Positions 11,020-31,046 of a DNA stretch of 64,000 bases are shown piece by piece. The DNA is taken from sequence record NC_135731.1; one strand, written 5' to 3'. Every line of letters starts with the position of its first letter. Position 1 is the stretch's first letter. Position numbers and translations under genes: made by a program. Source of the DNA: a phage. The notes under the pieces are model-generated. The model was not told where the DNA came from. It saw only the letters and a program-made list of their open reading frames with translations, and searched no databases.

Positions 11020-11400
11020 TTAATCGTAGTGTGCCAAAATCTCTCCATCGTTGCAAGTTCCCTCTACAAAGTTATGAAGATTCATACACTCATCTTGATA
11101 GAAGAATTTACCGCTTTTCAGCCGTAAGCCAAATAACTCAGCATCTCCACGATGGCAAGCCTCTACAAGTTCATAGATTTCATACGGCAACTCTCCGTCG
11201 TCATGGAAGAACCCAGCCTTATCGTTGACATAGATGAAGAAATAATCACTGCTATCGCAAGCGTCCAATATTTTAAACCAGATTTCATCTACATCTTTTT
11301 CTCGGATATCGATCACGCAAGTAGAGCTGCATTCGTACTCCTTCTCCGGCTCCTCGGTCAATACCACCAGGTAGTTTCCCCGCTTACCTACTTTAGCCAT
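11020..11400 (-). CDS. hypothetical protein (126 aa)
   Basis: Co-directional ORF between the AAA+ ATPase gene and a terminator; no recognisable motif. Confidence 0.6.
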   Translation of the reverse strand: MAKVGKRGNYLVVLTEEPEKEYECSSTCVIDIREKDVDEIWFKILDACDSSDYFFIYVNDKAGFFHDDGELPYEIYELVEACHRGDAELFGLRLKSGKFFYQDECMNLHNFVEGTCNDGEILAHYD

Positions 11401-11409
11401 ACAACCTCC

Positions 11410-12594
11410 TTAAGCTTTAGCCAAAATGGCGCTAAACTCTTCACCAAACTCTTTTACAATCTTCATCAGGTTTGGGTATGCTTTGATCAGCTGAGCAACG
11501 ATCTTGTCACGACCTTTACCGATAAGCAAGGCATTTCCTAAGGCATTAGGTTTCATCATCGCCATAAAGACTGAGAATACAAAATCTCGGTTCTCGTCCT
11601 TGAAGTTTTCCCAAAGGAAATCGAGGAAGTTTGCCACACAGCTAACAAGATCTTCGTCGGAGATACTTGCATTTTCCATCATATTACGAATAGCGATACA
11701 ACCTTCAGATCCAAGAATCCACAAGATGTCCGGCTGTTTAGGACCTACGTATTCTTTGCAACCTCCTGCCATAATCCGACCGATTTCCGGTAAGTTGCGT
11801 TTCTTGGTGTGGTAAGTCCAGATCTCTACCGCTGCAGTGTGACCAATAGCACCTTGCAGAAGAACACGGGCCATAGCGTCAGAAATAATACCGCTGTCAA
11901 AATCGTGCAAGATATCAGATGCAGCAACCCAAGATCGTGGTGTGGCAAAAGATGGACAATTAATCTCAGCCATGGCCTCATAATTATCGATAGCTGATGG
12001 AACTCTTTTCAGATATCCAATTACAGAGGAGTGCACCCCATTAAGGAATGCGTAGTCCTCAATAAACACCTCTGCATTGCTTGTAACTTCTACAATGATA
12101 AAACGGTTAGCCAGAGGGGCTTCGAGCGCCGAAAGAACCGCACCATCTGTAGAACGGTTACCAGCAGCCACAAAAACAGAACCCTTAGGGAATGCATAGG
12201 TACCGCACTTGTGGTCGAGCATAATTTGCATTGCCACCTTTTGCAGGTAGTTATCTGCATGAGTGAGCTCATCCAGAAAGATAATTCCGCTCCAGTCAGG
12301 ATCCGCAGGCCAAAATTCTGGAATTGCAAATACTGTACGTGTAGTTCCATCCGCTTCTACAGGGATAGGTAGCCCAGATAAGTCGGCAGGATCTTTATCT
12401 GACAGTCGCACGTCAACCAAGTTGTCATCTCGCTCACCGAACATATTATCGGCAATCTGCTTCATCACCTGGCTCTTTCCCACGCCCATCGGTCCTAAAA
12501 TCAGGACAGATCGGTTATGACGCTGGGCAAACTGAATGATAGCTGGCAACTCACGGACAGTGATTTGACCACTTTCAAATACGTTTCTTGACAT
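11410..12594 (-). CDS. MoxR-class AAA+ ATPase (CobS-like)
   Basis: Walker A ILGPMGVGKS, Walker B IIFLDELTHA, sensor-like VAAGN; single AAA module of about 390 aa as in MoxR/CbbQ/CobS proteins. Confidence 0.75.
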   Translation of the reverse strand: MSRNVFESGQITVRELPAIIQFAQRHNRSVLILGPMGVGKSQVMKQIADNMFGERDDNLVDVRLSDKDPADLSGLPIPVEADGTTRTVFAIPEFWPADPDWSGIIFLDELTHADNYLQKVAMQIMLDHKCGTYAFPKGSVFVAAGNRSTDGAVLSALEAPLANRFIIVEVTSNAEVFIEDYAFLNGVHSSVIGYLKRVPSAIDNYEAMAEINCPSFATPRSWVAASDILHDFDSGIISDAMARVLLQGAIGHTAAVEIWTYHTKKRNLPEIGRIMAGGCKEYVGPKQPDILWILGSEGCIAIRNMMENASISDEDLVSCVANFLDFLWENFKDENRDFVFSVFMAMMKPNALGNALLIGKGRDKIVAQLIKAYPNLMKIVKEFGEEFSAILAKA

Positions 12595-17721: not shown

Positions 17722-17985
17722 ATGGCAACAGAGTTAAAATTTGCATCAAACCGTAAAACTAAGAAGTATCTGTCCTCAGTAGCTCCAGGCACTGTGGTGA
17801 TGTTTGTTGATGAACTTGGGGATGTGAATACAGCACTTGTTGTAAAATCACATCCTGCAAACATATATGTTGGGGTATTTGACCTGTTCAGAAAGGTGTT
17901 TGTAGAACTACCTCACAGTTTGGTTGTTACAGAAATGGATGCCTGCATAGAAATTCTTGGCGAAGTTATGGTGGAGGAACAATAA
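17722..17985 (+). CDS. small paralog family protein 1 of 4 (87 aa)
   Basis: Strong RBS AGAGGAGG; shares a pattern (basic N-terminus, G-x-VV, VxxFDL, ELD..I.ILGE) with the three following ORFs. Confidence 0.65.
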   Translation: MATELKFASNRKTKKYLSSVAPGTVVMFVDELGDVNTALVVKSHPANIYVGVFDLFRKVFVELPHSLVVTEMDACIEILGEVMVEEQ

Positions 17986-18248
17986 TGGCTACTAGCATTG
18001 TATTCAATTCTAAGGTGAAGAACAAAAAGCGTGCAGACAGTTTTCCGTGTGGGACCGTGGTAAGTTGCGACGGAGACGGCATTCAAAACATAGTTATGAT
18101 TGTCAAAACAGGAGAACATTGTGTGTGGGGTTTCGATTTAGAAAATAATGAGTTGTACGATCTGCCGCCAAACATGAAAGTTACAGAGCTTGACACCAAA
18201 ATTACCATCCTTGGAGAGACAAGCTATTCAAAAGAAGGAGGAGAATAA
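17985..18248 (+). CDS. small paralog family protein 2 of 4 (87 aa)
   Basis: TAATG stop-start overlap with paralog 1; FPCGTVV ... WGFDL ... ELDTKITILGE. Confidence 0.65.
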   Translation: MATSIVFNSKVKNKKRADSFPCGTVVSCDGDGIQNIVMIVKTGEHCVWGFDLENNELYDLPPNMKVTELDTKITILGETSYSKEGGE

Positions 18249-18511
18249 TGACCACAAAAATCACTATCGCAGAACCGAAAGCCAACACTCAACCTATCGA
18301 AAAGTTTAAGTGCGGTGAGGTGGTAACATTCACACCAGATAATGAAGATGCTAAGATTTTCGCAATGGTCACAGCTGAGTGGATGTGCGACAACACCACA
18401 CAAGTGCTACGTTTCGATACCTACCTCACAGATGAGATCCGAAACGATAAGATCGTGACAGGTGTGGACACTGAAATTATTTTCTACAAGAGCTTTTTAG
18501 AGGGTTTCTGA
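18248..18511 (+). CDS. small paralog family protein 3 of 4 (87 aa)
   Basis: TAATG overlap with paralog 2; FKCGEVV ... LRFDTYL ... GVDTEIIFY. Confidence 0.6.
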   Translation: MTTKITIAEPKANTQPIEKFKCGEVVTFTPDNEDAKIFAMVTAEWMCDNTTQVLRFDTYLTDEIRNDKIVTGVDTEIIFYKSFLEGF

Positions 18512-22191: not shown

Positions 22192-22228
22192 AAAAAGAAA
22201 GGGGCCGTTTGGCCCCTTTTTTATTTTC
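22192..22228. terminator. bidirectional rho-independent terminator between convergent operons
   Basis: GGGGCC-GTTT-GGCCCC hairpin flanked by an A-run on one side and a T-run on the other (AAAAAGAAA ... TTTTTTATTTT); sits between the plus-strand stop at 22187 and the minus-strand stop at 22235. Confidence 0.7.
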
Positions 22229-22234
22229 CTCCTG

Positions 22235-25200
22235 TTAACTAGGGAAGTTTGTATAAGCTTCGAGATGGTATTGCTGGTTACCAGGTAGCATAACACCTAT
22301 GCTTGCAATACCTAATGTTCTACCACCAGGGTTCCACTGAAACTTAAATCCAATCCAACCCGAGCTTCTGGCTGCATCAATGTTATCACTGTACCCAAAA
22401 GTGGCTAGACCATCAACACCTGCTCCGAAAAGCAGTTGTATCTGGTTCCTTGGTAGGCCAATAATTTCAGGTATGTAAGCACCAAAAAATGTAGGGTTGG
22501 TGGTTGTGGTCGGATTGTTCATTACCGGACCGGTAAAGACCCTCATATTAGACGTTCCTGCAGGTCTAGGGTAGGCCCCGTCAAGAGGATTTCCTTCCCA
22601 AATAAACCACTGAGGTGCCATCTGTTTGACAGTGAATGATGTTGAGGACGTTTTGCGGCCTGCATCATCTGTAACTACAAACTTTATAGTGACATTCCCA
22701 GCAGCTTTAAATGTTACCAATCCTGTGGCAGCGTCCACTGTTGCAATGTTGGTATTACTACTTTCCCAAGTCTTTCTAATCCCGGATACATTGGAAGGGG
22801 TAATAGAAGGTTCCTGCATCTGCAGTTGACCACCCACAATCCCTATGCCGTTGCCTGGATTATACAGCACACCAACCTCGTCTATAATGTTCCCTGCTTT
22901 GAGACTATACTTCCTTGAGAAGTTGTAGGTTCCGTTATAAGTGTGTGTCCCTGAGAAGGTGACATCTGCCTTTCCGTAAGAGATGCAAACCAAAGCATAC
23001 TTCCTGTCAGGCAACGTTGCTCCAGTCTCCGGGTGAGTTTTACCCACCTGAAACACACTTGGGTCAGTGGAGTCGTGGCTATCACTAACGGAGCTTGGAC
23101 CACCCATCAGTTGTGACAAGCAATTCCTTACCCATGTCCAGTTATTATCGCTGGAGAAGTCCACAGTTAAATCAAACACAACCCACTCATTTGGCTTCCA
23201 CACAGGTGTTGTAATGGACTTGCCTACACCGCCTCCTTGGAGTGTTGCCGACTGTTCAGTGATCAGGGCCGCATAGGCCAGAGTTCCTAAACTCAGAGTC
23301 TGGCTTGCTGTCCTCACTACCTTAGAATCAGCATCTGTGAAGTTGTTGATGATTTGGAATGTGCCATAAGTGTTTTTACAGGTAATTCTGGCGTTCAGTG
23401 TGTCAATCTTTCTCACATCTGCCATAGCAGTGTTAGACACAGAGAAGTCAGAAGCTTTAGCTGAGTTTGCCGCAACAGCAGGATCAACGTTAAGAGTTGC
23501 GTTGAACTGACAAGCGGGGGTAACCAGCAGCTTGTTATCACCTATTTGCTTCCATGAAACACTTTGAACAGGAAGATTCCATTTAATACCTGAGAAAACC
23601 TTAGCAACCCTTGGCCCCAAAGCTCCAGTCCTGTTGTCTTTACAGCACATAGACATGGTGATCGTTGACGGAGTGGCCTGACCAAATAATTGCTGTGCTT
23701 TTGCAGAGGACATAGTGTAGAAATTGTCCTTAACAAACTCATCAGCGGCTAAAGATCCGTCAGCCCTCCACCACTGCACCTGATACCCAGTCTTATCCCA
23801 GCCACCGACCTGCTTCAGGTCTTCCCAGGAGATTTCCAGATCCCCAGTGGTAGGGTTGATTGCAGCAGTTCCTGGTGTTCCAGAGGACCATAATGGGATA
23901 TCGAACCACGCTGGTTTAACAGATTGTACTGCGCTCGGTCCTATTGCAGCAGCAAGTTGCTGACCCATCAACACACGAGCATCTTTTACCAGACCCCACT
24001 CAATCATAGACCCAGAGTAGCCCTCTTTCTTGTAGGCTGAGGATCCGTTCAAATGGATGAGTCGGCTTGTGCCAAAGTTATGTGCTCCACCACCGTTGTC
24101 GTCTGCAAAATTGGTTATGATTCTGTCCCTGATGTTTTTCCATGCCCTGCCTCCAATCTCATAGTCATGGTCATAACATCTTTGCAGTGTTGTCCAGCAA
24201 ATGATCGCCATCCTTCTACCATCGCTGAATCCAAAGGCCTGATCGTTAAGCTCTCTCCACAAGTAGCAGTTAGTGGTCCACATGGCCCTATGAATGTTAA
24301 ACCAGTTTATAGATTTGGCTGAGTTGTCCCACTGAGTCCCAGGTAATTCAGGCCATACTGCATTGACCAGCATGTCTTCTGTTCCTGCATCAACCAAGAA
24401 CCCTCTTACCTTCTTACCCATGCCTACCCTATCTTTTGCAATCCAGCTGCCAAACAATCTCAGTTTTGGACCGTAGACAACATCTTCCGGATGCTCAAAA
24501 GAAACATATTTTAGGTATATTGTAGGGTCACCATAGGTGCCATCACAAACAGCTTTGTGCATGTTCTCGCCAAGGTCTAGACGAAGTCCTGTTACAACTT
24601 TAGACGTGTCGGTGAATTTGTCTGTTAAATCAAACTCATACCACCACCAACCTGCACCCAACAATACTTTCTTACAACGCTGTGCGTCTGTATCAGATAT
24701 TCTCTTATCCCCTGCAAAAGGTGAGTCAGCAAACTGATAGTGCAGAGCGATCTCAAAAGGATGTGTGGATGTCCCGTTTTCTGCAAGAACTTGTTTACCT
24801 ATCAGGTCGCACTTAATGATCATCACAACACGTTTGTATCCGTTTGTTACCGGAATTTGCATGGACATGGATGTCCCATCCATGTTTGATCTCAGTGCAG
24901 TCATGATGATATAAGGGTCAACGGCATTGCCCAAAGTCTCAGGACCGGGGATTATCTTATACTTCTTGACCTGCCCCATGATGTAGTCACTTGCGTAAGT
25001 TGCCTCATTCAAGCAAGATCCCCCACCAGGTAACTCACCAGGTCCCCAGAAAAATGCGCCGTAACAGTTGTAGAACCACTTGTTAGGATCGTATTTATTC
25101 TTGAAGGTCTGAACCTCGTTGGCCTGTTTTGTCAAGAAAACCTGCGTGTCTGTGAAGATTGCAGGGTTTACTCTCGCCTGTCTTGGAGGGTAACCTGTAG

Positions 25201-27862
25201 TTTGGTTAAACCACAAATTACAAGAGTAATCCCTCATATAGTCATAATCAGAGTATTTGTTTACATCTTCGTTCCAACACATGTTTAGGTTGGTACCGCC
25301 CATGCATACAATATATTCTGCGACATACTTATCACTTCTGGTAGGAATACCTATGAACCATCTGTTAACAGGCTCATCCCAAGCTGTGCGCTCATCTTTA
25401 ACGCAGATAGCAATCCAGTCATGTGTTCCTGTTTTCTTGCACACATCTCGCTTCATACCATAGTAGAACTCTTTAGTATTCGGCTCAGGTGCATTTATCA
25501 GGTAACTCCATGCCTGATTTGCATAAGTTCCATTGGTGCGTGGATCATGATCAAAGGCATACATGATGATCCTTTCCCCACCAAGATGTTCGCCAAGAGT
25601 AACTTTGACATTTACATCGCCGTAACCGTTGCGAACAACATCCATATTATCAATAGAGATGCCTCTAGGGGTATAGGCAATTTTCAGAGAGTTATCTTCA
25701 CTAGTGCCACCAAGGGTGATCCCTATGTTGTTTGTTGTCCCGTCGGCATATCTTACTGTGGCTTCCCAGCGTATTCCGAAATATCCTGCATCATGGCTGA
25801 CAATTTTCAGTGTACGAGCTCCTGGGTGAGGTTTTCCAGGATCAGGCCAAGGGTCTGGGTGTTCGTGAACAGTCAACGACGTTCCGTTCTGCTCATTAAC
25901 CTGCAACATTTTACCACCCTTGCCATTAGGATTGAACTCCCACAAGGCTTGTGTTTTCACAATATTGTCATACGTGGCGCGTCTTTGATCGTAGATCTCT
26001 TGGGTCACATCATAAGTGACTGATCCAGCATCCATTCTGTGGAGTCTGACCATATACGATGTATCCCCTTCTACTGCAGGCTGGGTCCCATTCAGCCCAA
26101 AGTATACAGTATCGTTAACATGGAACTGCTTGTTTCTACCAACGGTATGCCACTTGCCGTCGGACGGATACGCAGGAACTATAGTGTTCCAGTTCAAAGT
26201 CCTTGTCGTATAGGTTCTTCCAGTGCCATGCTTGTCATGGTAGGTGATCTTGATAGAATACAAACCACGTCTGTTGATGTTACGGTTATACTGGGTAACC
26301 ACAACTTCGTTAGCACCACCATGGTTCCAGTTAGTGGAAAACTGATAGTTTGCATCTGTAACAACAGTGCCTGCAGCATTTACCAACTCAATCTTGTCAA
26401 TAATGAACGTAGCACCCTCCGGCTGAGGTTTCAATTTCATCTTGACAGTATCTCCGATGTAAATGTTGCTAGCATTGCTCACACCATTGACATCAAAGAT
26501 GTCTTCGATACCCCAGCTATCTACCGGGACATTTTTATACCAATTCTCCGGAATCTCTGTGAACCCTTGGCTGTTAAGTCTGCCACCAAAGAGGTTATTA
26601 GATCCTGAAAAACTACCACGTGGTATTCCTGACCACCAAAGCTTTCCATTTACCACACAGAGTGTGCCTAAGAAACCTTCCCTGTGGATCCCTTGAAAAT
26701 AAACGCTTTCTGTCCAGCTTACTGGCTCTGTCTGTTCAACAAACTTAGCTGTTGCCAGCGCTCTGTAATGAATAAAATTGGCCCTAGGACTATTATTAGC
26801 AGATTGAGCACCAATATCGTTACACAGGTTTCTGGAGAAACCACGGTACTGTTTTGTACCATTATTGAAGAAAATTCCACTAGTCCCGTACCCGCGAGCC
26901 ATAATTACTTCATGGGTATAGGTGATGTTAAGGCTTCTCCACGTGTCGTCACCCCAAACATCCTGACCATAAAACACATTAACAAGCTGTTGGTCATCAG
27001 GTTTGTGCATCCTTTCTGTGGCTATAATTGCACCATTAGGTCCACACATGAACCCTTTCCATGTCTCGCCCACCGGGATGCCTTTAAACTGGTCAAGAGT
27101 CACATGCTCGGCTGGATAAACTAGTGCGTTTTTGCTGTTATTTCTTAAGAAATCGTAACCTGCAATCCAGAATCCGTTAGGACCACCAAAAATAACCGAG
27201 TTGTCATGAACTTCACAATTAATTCTTGGATTTTTCCAAGGACCTGTCTCTGGACTTTCAGATGTTTCACCAATCTTAACTGGAGTAGCGTGTTGATTTT
27301 TGTCAACATGAAGAGAGCCGTAAGTATTATTGCCAGAGCCGTACAGGTGAAGCATACCATCAGCCTCTGGTGCAGCAATTACCCACACTGTATTGTTTAC
27401 ACCACCCATTACTTCAACAAGTCTCTCAGGATGGGTGTCCAAATGCAACCCTGTTACGATCTGTTCCGGCAAAGGTGTCCACTCTCTGACACAAACATCG
27501 TTTCCACCTGCTGCCTCAGATCCGATAAGACCAGCTGTGCAACCAATATAGAAAAATTTATTATCGAATGTGCGGATTACAAATGCACGGTCAGCTCTCC
27601 AAACATGGTCTACGTTCCAAGCTGCCTCATTAGGATAGTTTATTGTATCAAGATCTCCAGTCCGACACTCTCCGAACCTATTATAGCCAGTAATATTAAG
27701 CTGACCATCATCAAAAAGTATAGCTAAGCTATTTACATAGGATACTGTATTGCTTGTACCATCACTGTTGTCTATTGGGTATGACAGAACAGCAAGTTCC
27801 TTAATTCCACCCCTCTTATCGAGGAAATGACGACCAAGTTTTAGCAAAGGGATTGGAAGCAT
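22235..27862 (-). CDS. very large virion-associated protein (1875 aa), putative adhesin or fibre with RCC1-like repeats and a C-terminal Ig-like (Big_2-like) domain
   Basis: N-terminal glycine-rich repeats resembling RCC1 beta-propeller blades (ITGYNRFGECRTGD, LYGSGNNTYGSLH); near the C-terminus NIATVDAATGLVTFKAAGNVTIKFVVTDDAG resembles bacterial Ig-like domains; last gene of the late operon. Confidence 0.4.
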   Translation of the reverse strand: MLPIPLLKLGRHFLDKRGGIKELAVLSYPIDNSDGTSNTVSYVNSLAILFDDGQLNITGYNRFGECRTGDLDTINYPNEAAWNVDHVWRADRAFVIRTFDNKFFYIGCTAGLIGSEAAGGNDVCVREWTPLPEQIVTGLHLDTHPERLVEVMGGVNNTVWVIAAPEADGMLHLYGSGNNTYGSLHVDKNQHATPVKIGETSESPETGPWKNPRINCEVHDNSVIFGGPNGFWIAGYDFLRNNSKNALVYPAEHVTLDQFKGIPVGETWKGFMCGPNGAIIATERMHKPDDQQLVNVFYGQDVWGDDTWRSLNITYTHEVIMARGYGTSGIFFNNGTKQYRGFSRNLCNDIGAQSANNSPRANFIHYRALATAKFVEQTEPVSWTESVYFQGIHREGFLGTLCVVNGKLWWSGIPRGSFSGSNNLFGGRLNSQGFTEIPENWYKNVPVDSWGIEDIFDVNGVSNASNIYIGDTVKMKLKPQPEGATFIIDKIELVNAAGTVVTDANYQFSTNWNHGGANEVVVTQYNRNINRRGLYSIKITYHDKHGTGRTYTTRTLNWNTIVPAYPSDGKWHTVGRNKQFHVNDTVYFGLNGTQPAVEGDTSYMVRLHRMDAGSVTYDVTQEIYDQRRATYDNIVKTQALWEFNPNGKGGKMLQVNEQNGTSLTVHEHPDPWPDPGKPHPGARTLKIVSHDAGYFGIRWEATVRYADGTTNNIGITLGGTSEDNSLKIAYTPRGISIDNMDVVRNGYGDVNVKVTLGEHLGGERIIMYAFDHDPRTNGTYANQAWSYLINAPEPNTKEFYYGMKRDVCKKTGTHDWIAICVKDERTAWDEPVNRWFIGIPTRSDKYVAEYIVCMGGTNLNMCWNEDVNKYSDYDYMRDYSCNLWFNQTTGYPPRQARVNPAIFTDTQVFLTKQANEVQTFKNKYDPNKWFYNCYGAFFWGPGELPGGGSCLNEATYASDYIMGQVKKYKIIPGPETLGNAVDPYIIMTALRSNMDGTSMSMQIPVTNGYKRVVMIIKCDLIGKQVLAENGTSTHPFEIALHYQFADSPFAGDKRISDTDAQRCKKVLLGAGWWWYEFDLTDKFTDTSKVVTGLRLDLGENMHKAVCDGTYGDPTIYLKYVSFEHPEDVVYGPKLRLFGSWIAKDRVGMGKKVRGFLVDAGTEDMLVNAVWPELPGTQWDNSAKSINWFNIHRAMWTTNCYLWRELNDQAFGFSDGRRMAIICWTTLQRCYDHDYEIGGRAWKNIRDRIITNFADDNGGGAHNFGTSRLIHLNGSSAYKKEGYSGSMIEWGLVKDARVLMGQQLAAAIGPSAVQSVKPAWFDIPLWSSGTPGTAAINPTTGDLEISWEDLKQVGGWDKTGYQVQWWRADGSLAADEFVKDNFYTMSSAKAQQLFGQATPSTITMSMCCKDNRTGALGPRVAKVFSGIKWNLPVQSVSWKQIGDNKLLVTPACQFNATLNVDPAVAANSAKASDFSVSNTAMADVRKIDTLNARITCKNTYGTFQIINNFTDADSKVVRTASQTLSLGTLAYAALITEQSATLQGGGVGKSITTPVWKPNEWVVFDLTVDFSSDNNWTWVRNCLSQLMGGPSSVSDSHDSTDPSVFQVGKTHPETGATLPDRKYALVCISYGKADVTFSGTHTYNGTYNFSRKYSLKAGNIIDEVGVLYNPGNGIGIVGGQLQMQEPSITPSNVSGIRKTWESSNTNIATVDAATGLVTFKAAGNVTIKFVVTDDAGRKTSSTSFTVKQMAPQWFIWEGNPLDGAYPRPAGTSNMRVFTGPVMNNPTTTTNPTFFGAYIPEIIGLPRNQIQLLFGAGVDGLATFGYSDNIDAARSSGWIGFKFQWNPGGRTLGIASIGVMLPGNQQYHLEAYTNFPS

Positions 27863-27872
27863 TGTGTTCTCC

Positions 27873-27903
27873 AGATAAGAAAACCGCCCCGTCAGGAGCG
27901 GTT
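27873..27903 (-). terminator. hairpin with T-tract directly upstream of the RBS of the 1875-aa gene (attenuator-like)
   Basis: Minus-sense CCGCTCC-TGAC-GGGGCGG followed by TTTTCTTATCT, then GGAGAA RBS and ATG at 27862. Confidence 0.45.
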
Positions 27904-27910
27904 AGATATA

Positions 27911-29656
27911 TTAACGTTGTGCAATTACTACGTCTACGATATCACCAACACCACAATACGTTAATTGCAGCAAGGTAACACTGTTAGCCTTGTTGTTAAT
28001 AACAGGTGTTGCCGACAGGATAGCATACTTATCGTGCAAAGTCACGTTGTGACCTACAGCATCCTGAATTACATAGATAACCGCAGTGAATGGATAAGGT
28101 TTATCTTCCGCTGATGTCCCAGGCCACTGTCCTATTGTAAAATCCCCTTTCGCGTGGACAACATACATACTGGCCTGCCCGTTAGGTGTCCATGTCCCCC
28201 CGGATGCGTCAACCTCCTCTAGATCAAAATCTACCTTCCCTGCGTGGAAAGTAGGGGCAGTAATGGTTTTACCAGCCTCAATTTCTTGAGAGGTGGTTAT
28301 CTTACCGCTGGAGTTAATGCCATTACAAACAAAGTTGACATTGGAGAAGTCTGGCAGCCACCCGGTCACTGTGCCGGATATTTCAAGGTTGTGAAGGTAG
28401 GTGGTGCCCGTACCTGCTGCGTTTAAACTAACATCCCCATTTACCTGCAAGTTTCTGGTAACGTTGCAGTTTTCAGAGTTTGCAGTTGTTGCAGTTAAAG
28501 TGGTGGTTGTCAGCTCGGTAATTACACCTTTGTTGGCTGTAAGCCCTTCTCCTTCAAAAGTTGCACGCTCATTGACCCTTAGAGTATTCAGAGCTATGTT
28601 TTGGATAGAGGCCGTACCTCGAATAACTACAGACCCGCCAACCTCCAAATCACCATTTATTAATGCGTCACCCGTGCTTTCAATATAGCTAGGGTAGATC
28701 ATGGTGCCATCGACAGAGTAGGTTATCCCTGTAACGGTACCTGTCACCTCAAGGTTCTTAACCCTGGTGGTCCCATCGACCTGCAATGTCGGTTCGGTTG
28801 CTGCCTTCATGGCATTACCACGAATGTACACGTAGTCAAAAAAGTTATTACCTAGACCGTCAAAATGCACATCGTTGTTATTAGCCACTGGTTTCCCAGA
28901 AGTTATAGTGTCGGCTATAACTCTGTGGGTGGATACTTCATGAGGTTGCAGCTCTGTGCTTCTCCAGTCTGCATGCTTAGGATCGCTCCACGCAAAAGTT
29001 AGTGTAGAAGTATTTGCAGTAAGGATTAGGTTCCTGAAGCGTGCAGTAGAATCCGCTCCATTAACAGGCCCGTGTATGGTAAGGGTGCCACCAACTATGG
29101 TGTTAGCCAGTTCTGTAAGACCTTTTACTACCAAAGACCCTACAGTTACTTTCATCCCCTCCATGGCTTTGAATATACTATCCACATAGTCAACAACAAA
29201 CTCTGTGTTTGCTATAGACTCGGACTTATCGTCCATTGGAGGTGTAGGTGCTCTCGGGTCACCTTCGAACCTTGGACTGTTAAGTTTTGCGTAGTATTTT
29301 GCCATTACTGCAGAATCGGTATATAATCTCCAGTTTGGAGATTGTGAAGGATCTGCTGGCATTCTAACCGGGTTAGATTTTGATGCTGCTGGGGCATACC
29401 ACCACTGAGTGCCTGTATCCCCTTTAAACTCATACAACTGGTTAAAAACTGTTGTGGATGCACCATACGCCCAAGGGATTGGTGGCGTTTTAAAATAAAG
29501 GGTGTCAAGCATGGCTTTTCGTACCGTAGGGATGGTGGTCCCATCCTCTACGACAACTTCATCCACAGCGTTACCGTTGACAATCAAGTGCAAACGTTCA
29601 GAATCAACAATTACTTGATCTACCGCCTGCTCGAAGCTTGTCATGTCTTGCGCCAT
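27911..29656 (-). CDS. putative tail fibre or spike protein (581 aa)
   Basis: Ser/Thr/Gly/Asn-rich repetitive sequence typical of beta-structured fibre proteins; lies in the fibre cluster. Confidence 0.4.
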   Translation of the reverse strand: MAQDMTSFEQAVDQVIVDSERLHLIVNGNAVDEVVVEDGTTIPTVRKAMLDTLYFKTPPIPWAYGASTTVFNQLYEFKGDTGTQWWYAPAASKSNPVRMPADPSQSPNWRLYTDSAVMAKYYAKLNSPRFEGDPRAPTPPMDDKSESIANTEFVVDYVDSIFKAMEGMKVTVGSLVVKGLTELANTIVGGTLTIHGPVNGADSTARFRNLILTANTSTLTFAWSDPKHADWRSTELQPHEVSTHRVIADTITSGKPVANNNDVHFDGLGNNFFDYVYIRGNAMKAATEPTLQVDGTTRVKNLEVTGTVTGITYSVDGTMIYPSYIESTGDALINGDLEVGGSVVIRGTASIQNIALNTLRVNERATFEGEGLTANKGVITELTTTTLTATTANSENCNVTRNLQVNGDVSLNAAGTGTTYLHNLEISGTVTGWLPDFSNVNFVCNGINSSGKITTSQEIEAGKTITAPTFHAGKVDFDLEEVDASGGTWTPNGQASMYVVHAKGDFTIGQWPGTSAEDKPYPFTAVIYVIQDAVGHNVTLHDKYAILSATPVINNKANSVTLLQLTYCGVGDIVDVVIAQR

Positions 29657-30990: not shown

Positions 30991-31017
30991 GTTCTCCTGA
31001 GAAAATTCCTTAGGACT

Positions 31018-31046
31018 ATTTTAACACTTTAGAGAACAAAATGCAA
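31018..31046 (-). promoter_or_regulatory. putative promoter with extended -10 (TGTTAAAAT) upstream of fibre paralog B
   Basis: Minus-sense TTGCAT-17 nt-TGT-TAAAAT about 28 nt upstream of the ATG at 30990; the -35 overlaps the T-tract of the preceding terminator. Confidence 0.4.

Follow-up and report, generated by a model that had tools for sequence, protein, structure and literature searches.

The largest protein of a Vequintavirus genome, gp27, as a candidate accessory adhesin of the lateral tail fibres

What is the role of the largest protein of rV5-like phages? These phages are broad-host-range candidates for phage therapy and their host range has been attributed to a multi-fibre ‘Swiss army knife’, of which this protein is the least explained part. 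The question was addressed for a 64,000-nt stretch of phage DNA (sequence record NC_135731.1; the whole stretch is referred to as the window), in which the protein, here gp27, is encoded at 22235..27862 on the minus strand. According to the reading preferred here, to which about an even chance is given, gp27 sits on the virion as an accessory adhesin of the lateral fibre network, binds glycans and is produced in smaller quantity than the fibre encoded upstream. Virion presence, docking on the upstream fibre gp28, a monomeric state, glycan binding and partial termination before the gene are the components which we infer for this reading.

The open reading frame (ORF) comprises 1875 amino acids (aa) plus the stop codon, with the start ATG at 27862-27860 and the stop TAA at 22237-22235, and the predicted protein has a mass of 208.0 kDa and an isoelectric point of 6.17. 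An earlier note, made from the letters alone, had described the gene as the largest in the window and as closing the structural operon. Both descriptions are correct: The second largest ORF has 1268 aa, and no minus-strand late gene comes after gp27, behind which lie a bidirectional terminator and convergent plus-strand genes. The earlier note gave no strand; its description fits the minus strand only. The G+C content of gp27 (45.1%) equals that of the window (44.5%), hence, horizontal acquisition judged by composition was rejected. Tandem DNA repeats were not found inside the gene. The gene and its downstream end are as follows:

22235..27862, minus strand: whole gp27 ORF, orthologue of rV5 gp27 and of Bas54 bas54_0041
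22195..22222, both strands: bidirectional terminator ending gp27 and the convergent plus-strand genes, equal to rV5 t026/t027

The window, and with it the gene, is 100% identical to Escherichia phage phiWec196 (LC739542, Vequintavirus). Matches were obtained in 121 phage records, 107 of which span 80% or more of the gene, mostly at 90-98% DNA identity; more than 100 records with 90-98% identity are from Vequintavirus. PHROG 15684 (function unknown) matches gp27 over practically its full length (E = 0, 4454 bits, aa 1-1874 against profile positions 1-1877 of 1878). By this match and the same genomic position, gp27 belongs to the Vequintavirus gp27 orthologous group; the synteny at gp27 is common to the window, MaxBurger (Bas54) and rV5. 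The opinion of the earlier note that the protein cannot be placed in a known family was, thus, wrong. In the rV5 gene table, gp27 is listed with 1878 aa and 208 kDa as a ‘conserved hypothetical protein’ with Big_2, whereas bas54_0041 is annotated as ‘lateral tail fiber protein with intimin domain’. As a separate observation, 15-20 GenBank records (MG0656xx) which carry the name ‘Campylobacter phage’ and give C. jejuni as the host match E. coli Vequintavirus or Phapecoctavirus genomes with 92-99% identity in the gp27 gene and the junction preceding it; a mistaken host label or a contaminated isolate is the probable cause.

From the N-terminus to the C-terminus, the following segments were delineated, in which Ig stands for immunoglobulin and pLDDT for the predicted local distance difference test score of the structure models:

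27833..27862, minus strand: N-terminal peptide MLPIPLLKLG, with M-x-P-I-P invariant in four genera; proposed docking element
26528..27832, minus strand: predicted RCC1-like beta-propeller region, about aa 11-445; best-conserved part of gp27
25328..26527, minus strand: several predicted beta-sandwich (Ig/FN3-like) domains, aa 446-845
24959..25327, minus strand: segment aa 846-968 with the conserved motifs FTD..FL.KQANEVQ and W..Y..W.GE.L, which are invariant columns in alignment A1
24506..24958, minus strand: predicted jelly-roll domain resembling carbohydrate-binding modules (CBM), aa 969-1119; exchanged between alleles
23858..24505, minus strand: Trp-rich, mostly helical segment, aa 1120-1335, strongly conserved (GTEDMLVNAVWP, NWFN.HRAMW, EGYSGSMIEWG)
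23099..23857, minus strand: segment aa 1336-1588, with a small beta domain (aa 1339-1419) and then the most variable stretch (aa 1451-1550)
22583..23098, minus strand: two Ig-like domains, aa 1589-1760, the second being Big_2; pLDDT 76-94
22664-22834, minus strand: Pfam Big_2 match, aa 1677-1733
22238..22582, minus strand: C-terminal beta domain, aa 1761-1875, with two alleles within the genus; pLDDT 50-75

An RCC1-like domain is absent from the Pfam scan of full-length gp27. When the N-terminal 470 aa were searched alone, WD40_RLD (PF25390) matched aa 45-199 with an E-value of 2.8e-4 and 20.7 bits (cut-off 150 bits), RCC1_2 scored 13.7 bits (cut-off 22), and the orthologues P0003 and P0009 showed the same sub-cut-off behavior. 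The propeller was accepted because of two profile comparisons. A profile of the N-terminal domain matched only RCC1-family propellers in the PDB (UVR8 with 1.4e-8, HERC1 with 5e-7, HERC2, RPGR and RCC2), and hhalign aligned aa 1-460 of gp27 with the N-terminus of an 890-aa Phapecoctavirus protein over 400 columns at a probability of 99.85%. The latter protein contains WD40_RLD at 2.4e-11, reaches the cut-off for an RCC1 repeat and matches PHROGs named ‘regulator of chromosome condensation’; the RCC1 repeat (PF00415) scored 21.8 and 28.3 bits in the homologues (cut-off 21.7). The assignment of about aa 11-445 as an RCC1-like propeller is, thus, transitive, and the RCC1-like N-terminus proposed in the earlier note holds through profile homology to RCC1-family structures. 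Comparison of gp27 with itself using hhalign gave one weak internal repeat (E 0.16), the blade repeats being very divergent.

Using alignments of 16 sequences, AlphaFold models were made of aa 1-1000 and of aa 930-1875, with a mean pLDDT of 44.6 and 59.5, respectively. The confident parts of the second model are a beta-sandwich of 150 aa (aa 969-1119), a small beta domain (aa 1339-1419) and an Ig-like part (aa 1529-1759). No credible model was obtained for the propeller, for aa 846-968 (pLDDT < 30) and for the helical aa 1126-1330. The segment aa 846-968 has no homologue outside the gp27 family, and aa 1120-1335, with a Trp content of 5.1%, has no match in Pfam, NCBIfam or PDB. The Big_2 domain (PF02368, aa 1677-1733) was found with an E-value of 3.9e-9 and 36.8 bits (cut-off 22.8) and was modelled with a pLDDT of 84-94, which confirms the Ig-like segment near the C-terminus that the earlier note had described. 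Structures similar to aa 1589-1760 include intimin, S-layer Sap and lambda gpV-C. The NCBIfam model intimin_all reaches 21.8 bits (cut-off 1400) on aa 1696-1734 only and the PDB intimin matches cover the 48 residues of the Big_2 region. Since the intimin matches are confined to the Big_2 stretch, the label ‘intimin domain’ refers to the Big_2 fold only, and membership in the intimin/invasin family was rejected. Foldseek against the PDB returned strings of Ig-like domains with TM-scores of 0.1-0.15, which were used as a description of the architecture only. In summary, the C-terminal half of gp27 models as a CBM-like jelly roll plus Ig-like domains.

Further searches gave few relatives. When aa 1-1200 were searched exhaustively with phmmer against 1.84 billion representative proteins, 8 hits were obtained, none of which lies outside the gp27 family beyond aa 200; a word-indexed homologue search gave 15 proteins, and a full-length gp27 profile against the PDB gave nothing significant. 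A coiled coil, collagen repeat, triple beta-helix or other beta-helix, Peptidase_S74 or fibre-chaperone signature was not found in Pfam, PHROGs and NCBIfam, the models being of low confidence over ~40-60% of the length. Neither was a catalytic or toxin domain found in Pfam, NCBIfam or PDB. The protein is modular and probably not trimeric.

Conservation was determined from 15 gp27 orthologues of 40-91% identity. In the distant orthologues, the N-terminal 450 aa are 70-80% identical and the C-terminal part 12-36%, with aa 1451-1600 down to 12-24%. The differences between alleles are concentrated at aa 251-300, 451-850, 951-1000 and 1200-1550 and in the final 125 aa. Two parts, aa 951-1150 and the last 125 aa (aa 1751-1875), switch alleles independently of the rest of gp27. 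For example, the orthologue P0001 is only 50-76% identical in the C-terminal domain (aa 1761-1875) although it is 91% identical overall. Judged from the alignments, a conserved end that would serve for attachment combined with a variable, recombining distal end is a pattern typically seen in receptor-binding proteins. For P0001, a precomputed Pfam match to PF26918.1 is listed; this recent family may cover part of the protein.

The neighborhood of gp27 is conserved beyond the genus. The gene order is the same in four genera: a gene for a small membrane protein, a gp28-like fibre gene, a gene for a protein starting with M-x-P-I-P and, finally, convergent genes. The last protein of the cluster differs in length as follows:

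Seunavirus: 573 aa
Phapecoctavirus: 890 aa
phi92-like Justusliebigvirus: 942 aa
Vequintavirus: 1875 aa
metagenomic relatives: up to 1976 aa

In Seunavirus and Phapecoctavirus, the protein consists of the propeller followed by Big_2 domains, and its homology to gp27 is found in the N-terminal ~445 aa. For the 890-aa protein, this N-terminal domain alone is in common with gp27 (38% identity, E 1e-27). The phi92-like 942-aa counterpart lacks the propeller and keeps MYPIP, so that only the first residues are in common with gp27. The residues M1, P3, I4 and P5 are invariant in alignment A5, which comprises the four genera. Since the codons for M-x-P-I-P differ synonymously between genera, the selection is on the protein. 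In the metagenomic relatives L007-L011, the genes are called four codons too early (~12 nt; e.g., L007 4001), which gives ‘MENTM-FPIP’; the early ATG lies inside the Shine-Dalgarno region (uAUGGAGAACACAAUG) and the M-x-P-I-P start is likely the true one.

The fibre encoded immediately upstream, gp28 (27911-29656, minus strand, 581 aa), ends in a head which is proposed to be the docking site:

27914..28258, minus strand: C-terminal head (aa 467-581) of gp28; proposed docking site for gp27

This head of ~115 aa is 42-49% identical across the four genera, with 30 invariant residues, even where the remaining fibre is unrelated. The upstream fibre of Phapecoctavirus, for instance, matches gp28 in the last 115 aa only (49% identity, E 2e-29), the rest being an unrelated Tail_spike_N plus collagen protein. 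Orthologues of gp28 carry the Pfam domains Phage_phiTE_241_N and Phage_phiTE_241_C, and in the long tail fibre of phiTE, a helical bundle at the N-terminus is attached to the sheath initiator; RCC1 or propellers go unmentioned in the phiTE paper. In Bas54, the RBPseg study described a TC8-class fibre, RBP65, which has an N-terminal helical bundle, two beta-helices and a C-terminal head and which is without database annotation. Its cryo-electron microscopy (cryo-EM) reconstruction contains unassigned density on the TC8 fibre head, and the authors interpret this head as an adaptor for a tip adhesin. From the architecture of TC8, we infer that TC8 may correspond to gp28 and the extra density to gp27. 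Docking of gp27 on the gp28 head, as the sequence comparisons suggest it, is considered possible, albeit somewhat doubtful.

Ahead of gp27, the following expression elements were found or proposed:

27873..27903, minus strand: hairpin and interrupted U-run between gp28 and gp27; rV5 terminator t028, proposed partial terminator
27869..27872, minus strand: Shine-Dalgarno sequence GGAG, 6 nt before the ATG; invariant in alignment A7
31017..31026, minus strand: late-promoter-like TGTTAAAATA (rV5 P030), nearest upstream promoter for gp30, gp29, gp28, the hairpin and gp27

The hairpin AACCGCUCC-UGAC-GGGGCGGUU (27903..27882, minus strand) has 9 pairs, of which 6 are G-C, and a loop of 4 nt. It is followed by UUUUCUUAU, whose first two U belong to the stem and in which four U precede the interruption, and it lies 10 nt ahead of GGAG-ATG. 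The hairpin plus T-tract directly before the ribosome-binding site, as seen by the earlier note, is, therefore, present, with the T-run interrupted. The centroid energy is about -14 to -15 kcal/mol, and the 54-nt junction has a z-score of -3.1, with 1 of 200 shuffles as stable. From the stop codon of gp28 (TAA, 27913-27911) to the ATG of gp27 there are 48 nt, which leave no room for a promoter. Thus, every gp27 transcript crosses the hairpin. With no space for a promoter behind it, whatever the hairpin does will act on the expression of gp27 relative to gp28. In the rV5 paper, the hairpin was predicted as terminator t028 with -12.4 kcal/mol, together with the downstream t026/t027, and the phAPEC8 counterpart was published as a terminator as well; these predictions are ARNold-based. 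The late-promoter core TGGTAAAATA is enriched in the window (19 matches, 5.7 expected). A sequence with one mismatch to this core, TGGCAAAATA, is found within gp28 at 29295-29304 on the minus strand; if active, it would add transcripts that still cross the hairpin.

A hairpin is found at the gp28-like/gp27-like junction in every lineage examined, with -14 to -15.5 kcal/mol and z-scores of -2.7 to -3.4, while the stem sequences are unrelated:

Phapecoctavirus: GAAGCCCC-GCAA-GGGGCUUC, then UUUUCUUUUAU, with the first four bases in the stem
Seunavirus: AAGGGCUGUC-UUCG-GACAGCCUUU, then CUUUU
phi92-like: AAGCCCC-UUCG-GGGGCUU, then AUUGUUU
metagenomic clade: AGCCUCUCC-UGCG-GGAGAGGCU, then UUACUGU
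second Vequintavirus allele (P0002 type): GGCCGUCA-CAACUU-UGACGGCC, then UAUUAAC

In the orthologous alignment, 87% of the cells are paired and 3 pairs are changed on both sides, values which are reached by 4-6 of 500 shuffles. Since pairing is kept with compensatory changes, the hairpin is under selection. That it acts as an attenuator of gp27 is plausible, and a ‘leaky terminator’ is its most economical reading. In the minimum-energy folds of the window and of Phapecoctavirus, UUCUU or UUUCU after the stem pairs weakly with the Shine-Dalgarno sequence GGAG(A/G) (27869-27881, minus strand); this pairing is absent from the centroid structures and may mean nothing.

Regarding function during infection, disruptive transposon insertions in bas54_0041 are tolerated according to the HIDEN-SEQ preprint, so that neither the infection of E. 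coli K-12 nor the formation of infective virions requires the gene. The earlier note had held that absence from virions together with non-essentiality would speak against it; of these two, non-essentiality was found in the transposon screen on K-12, and presence in the virion is what we predict. An assignment to a well-characterised fibre family would likewise have counted against it, and no such family claims gp27 in the domain searches. The host requirements of phiWec196 are nfrA/B, waaY, waaG and waaF, i.e. envelope glycan and lipopolysaccharide (LPS) core synthesis, none of which is tied to gp27 in that paper. The BASEL paper assigned the glycan receptor common to the group to a fibre with a deacetylase domain and the LPS core to the short tail fibres. 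With both receptors accounted for, none is left over on these hosts, which agrees with an accessory role of gp27. The same paper counts the gp27 orthologue among three large variable fibre genes and leaves open which gene makes which fibre. Indirect support for gp27 in the virion comes from W70 (Vequintavirinae), for which RCC1-like proteins were detected in virions by tandem mass spectrometry (MS/MS).

Taken together, gp27 may form the accessory adhesin at the distal end of one lateral tail fibre. By its conserved N-terminus, it would dock on the conserved C-terminal head of trimeric gp28, and the variable C-terminal half would bind surface glycans of particular hosts or of the environment. 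The protein would extend adsorption and be unneeded on E. coli K-12. Transcription would be driven by the late promoter before gp30 and read through the hairpin and U-run before gp27; this read-through would give fewer gp27 than gp28 transcripts, e.g., for one adhesin per fibre trimer. The low-copy adhesin or fibre suggested by the earlier note is, thus, kept as the best reading, with virion presence as a predicted property.

Several points weigh against the accessory-adhesin reading. The RCC1 score of gp27 itself is far below the Pfam gathering cut-off, the propeller part of the AlphaFold model has a pLDDT < 50 and does not capture the fold, and both models are weak, the fold assignments coming from parts of one of them. 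The M-x-P-I-P peptide is only five residues long. The gp28-type head was found in 385 phage records and the propeller in 213; thus, the head needs no gp27-type partner, and a strict co-occurrence of both was rejected. Considering its sequence distribution, the 115-aa head may be a general fibre-to-fibre adaptor. The correspondence of TC8 to gp28 is drawn from architecture only. Furthermore, RBPseg found density for three fibres only in Bas54 and fitted nothing to the extra density. In the rV5 gene table, gp27 is not flagged as detected by mass spectrometry, which has to be read with only six rV5 proteins so confirmed.

With respect to the location of gp27, it is improbable that the protein is part of the virion without sitting on the gp28 fibre, namely as a Hoc-like or whisker-like decoration of head, neck or sheath, the Ig- and CBM-like domains of which hold the phage to mucus or cell-surface glycans, with no role as a specific receptor-binding protein. 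Such a decoration would fit the match of aa 1592-1760 to PHROG 215, a ‘structural protein with Ig domain’ (head and packaging), a marginal PDB profile match to a phage decoration protein (E 0.26), the dispensability on K-12 and the fact that the Bas54 fibre reconstructions did not place gp27. However, gp27 ends the tail-fibre module and not the head module in four genera, its N-terminus is co-conserved with the adjacent fibre head and its allelic mosaicism resembles receptor-binding proteins. Still less probable is a conventional homotrimeric lateral tail fibre attached directly to the baseplate, as implied by the GenBank annotation. This is the sense of the BASEL annotation and of the count of three large variable fibre genes, and the phi92 relatives carry three fibre sets, one of which (fiber II) is still without a gene. 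Yet, gp27 has none of the fibre signatures searched for above, and its fold matches are CBMs and Ig-like domains in chains. A propeller of the RCC1 type is a globular domain. The AlphaFold3 screen of the phi92 authors for fibre-like models named gp15, gp140, gp150 and gp151 as four further candidates, which may also argue against a homotrimer. The Pa223 capsid spike, to which these authors likened gp140 and gp151, is a trimeric beta-helix and unrelated to gp27. Very improbable is, finally, that gp27 is not a virion component at all, being instead soluble or injected, such as an effector or a free factor which is released at lysis and binds or degrades glycans. The missing mass spectrometry flag in rV5 and the non-essentiality would agree with this, ~1000 aa without detectable homologue outside the family leave room for another activity, and the phi92-like counterpart has a weak SASA esterase-like match (E 0.033). 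On the other hand, the databases yielded no catalytic or toxin domain, gp27 is transcribed with the late fibre genes, related RCC1-like proteins occur in W70 virions, and shorter homologues are annotated as tail proteins (PHROG 11922). An injected effector, the other option of the earlier note, was rejected, as was a toxin: Nothing speaks in its favor, no such domain is present and the gene sits in the fibre module.

The hairpin can be judged separately from the protein. The U-tract is good in Phapecoctavirus and Seunavirus, interrupted in the window, weak in the metagenomic clade (UUUACUGU) and missing from the P0002-type allele, and this, too, weighs against attenuated expression of the adhesin. 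With a U-tract poor or absent in some lineages, termination is maybe not the conserved function of the hairpin. It could instead be an element for RNA stability or processing, as a stem that protects the 3’ end of the gp28 message or one at the 5’ end of the gp27 message, or the original terminator of the operon, with gp27 added later; we regard this as somewhat unlikely. Conservation of the hairpin in all lineages, with a weak or missing U-tract in two, would be expected from such a role, as would the tetraloops UUCG (Seunavirus, phi92-like) and GCAA (Phapecoctavirus) at the junction hairpins. Both tetraloops are unusually stable. In addition, terminator-like sites in the wider region are at chance level (9 found, 8.3 expected). 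Nevertheless, a U-rich run directly follows the stem in the window and three other genera, and ARNold called the hairpin a terminator in rV5 and phAPEC8. Moreover, a role in stability or processing would likewise lower or uncouple the expression of gp27 relative to gp28.

What stands at present is a correct account of a gene already catalogued and of a terminator prediction already published: The gp27 gene, its tail-fibre annotation, its dispensability and the prediction of the terminator had all been reported before. Added here are the transitive RCC1 assignment and the modelled CBM-like and Ig-like make-up of the C-terminal half, as well as a four-genus junction of head, M-x-P-I-P and hairpin, which suggests the docking model. 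If docking is true, gp27 gains a place in the fibre network, the unassigned cryo-EM density of Bas54 is explained, and the gp28 head and the M-x-P-I-P plug form a natural exchange point for engineering new specificities. Tentatively, and at less than an even chance, a plug-and-socket system may be common to Vequintavirus, Seunavirus, Phapecoctavirus and the phi92-like Justusliebigvirus. The socket would be the 115-aa head of a phiTE-241-type lateral fibre and the plug the M-x-P-I-P peptide, usually together with an RCC1-like propeller. In this way, the fibre tip would carry exchangeable non-trimeric adhesins of 573 to ~1976 aa, with a conserved leaky terminator hairpin setting their dosage to about one per trimer. 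Under this proposal, gp27 itself would be the unassigned density on the Bas54 fibre head.

Some further observations concern the distribution of the head and other loci. The 385 records with a gp28-type head include ‘long tail fiber proximal subunit’ proteins of jumbo phages and collagen-containing fibres of phi92-like phages. In the metagenomic relative L008, a 369-aa protein with YadA_anchor (trimeric autotransporter anchor), which is unusual for a phage, is encoded just past the fibre cluster (11189-12298, minus strand). In the window, three head-to-tail ORFs of 87 aa on the plus strand (17722-17985, 17985-18248 and 18248-18511) look like a tandem triplication of a small early gene; at this position, MaxBurger has three genes of 87-88 aa (264-267 bp) and one of 77 aa.

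Compared with known systems, rV5 gp27 and Bas54 bas54_0041 are like gp27 in full length (1875-1878 aa, 91-97% DNA identity) and have the same position, upstream hairpin (rV5 t028) and downstream terminator. There is no material difference; the function given here is predicted, apart from the dispensability on K-12. The Phapecoctavirus proteins phAPEC8_00180 and the 890-aa protein of phiWec190 and the 573-aa ‘tail protein’ of Seunavirus (PHROG 11922) share with gp27 the M-x-P-I-P peptide, the RCC1-like propeller and subsequent Big_2, and they are likewise encoded last in the fibre cluster, behind a hairpin and downstream of a fibre with the same head. In contrast to gp27, these homologues are two to three times shorter, can be aligned from aa 1 to ~445 only and lack the central ~1000 aa with the CBM-like jelly roll, the Trp-rich helical segment and the variable region. 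W70_237-239 (PHROG 4219) are RCC1-like propeller proteins of Vequintavirinae, too, and were the ones detected in W70 virions by MS/MS; PHROG 4219 matches the N-terminus of the Phapecoctavirus homologue (E 1.8e-32). They differ from gp27 in being stand-alone proteins of 40-43 kDa whose genes lie at another place of the genome. Among phage structural proteins, Ig-like domains are known from T4 Hoc and the C-terminal domain of lambda gpV (reviewed by Fraser et al. 2006). These are head and tail-tube proteins, respectively, whereas gp27 is encoded in the fibre module and has a propeller and a CBM-like domain as well. The gp38-type adhesins of T-even phages and pb5 of T5 are monomeric tip adhesins on trimeric fibres. 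The analogy to gp27 would be a non-trimeric receptor-binding protein which caps a distal fibre head and is encoded directly downstream of the fibre, an idea that RBPseg also raises for Bas54. Sequence or fold relationship to gp38 and pb5 does not exist and gp27 is about ten times larger than gp38; docking is proposed only as a common principle, and membership in either group is not claimed.

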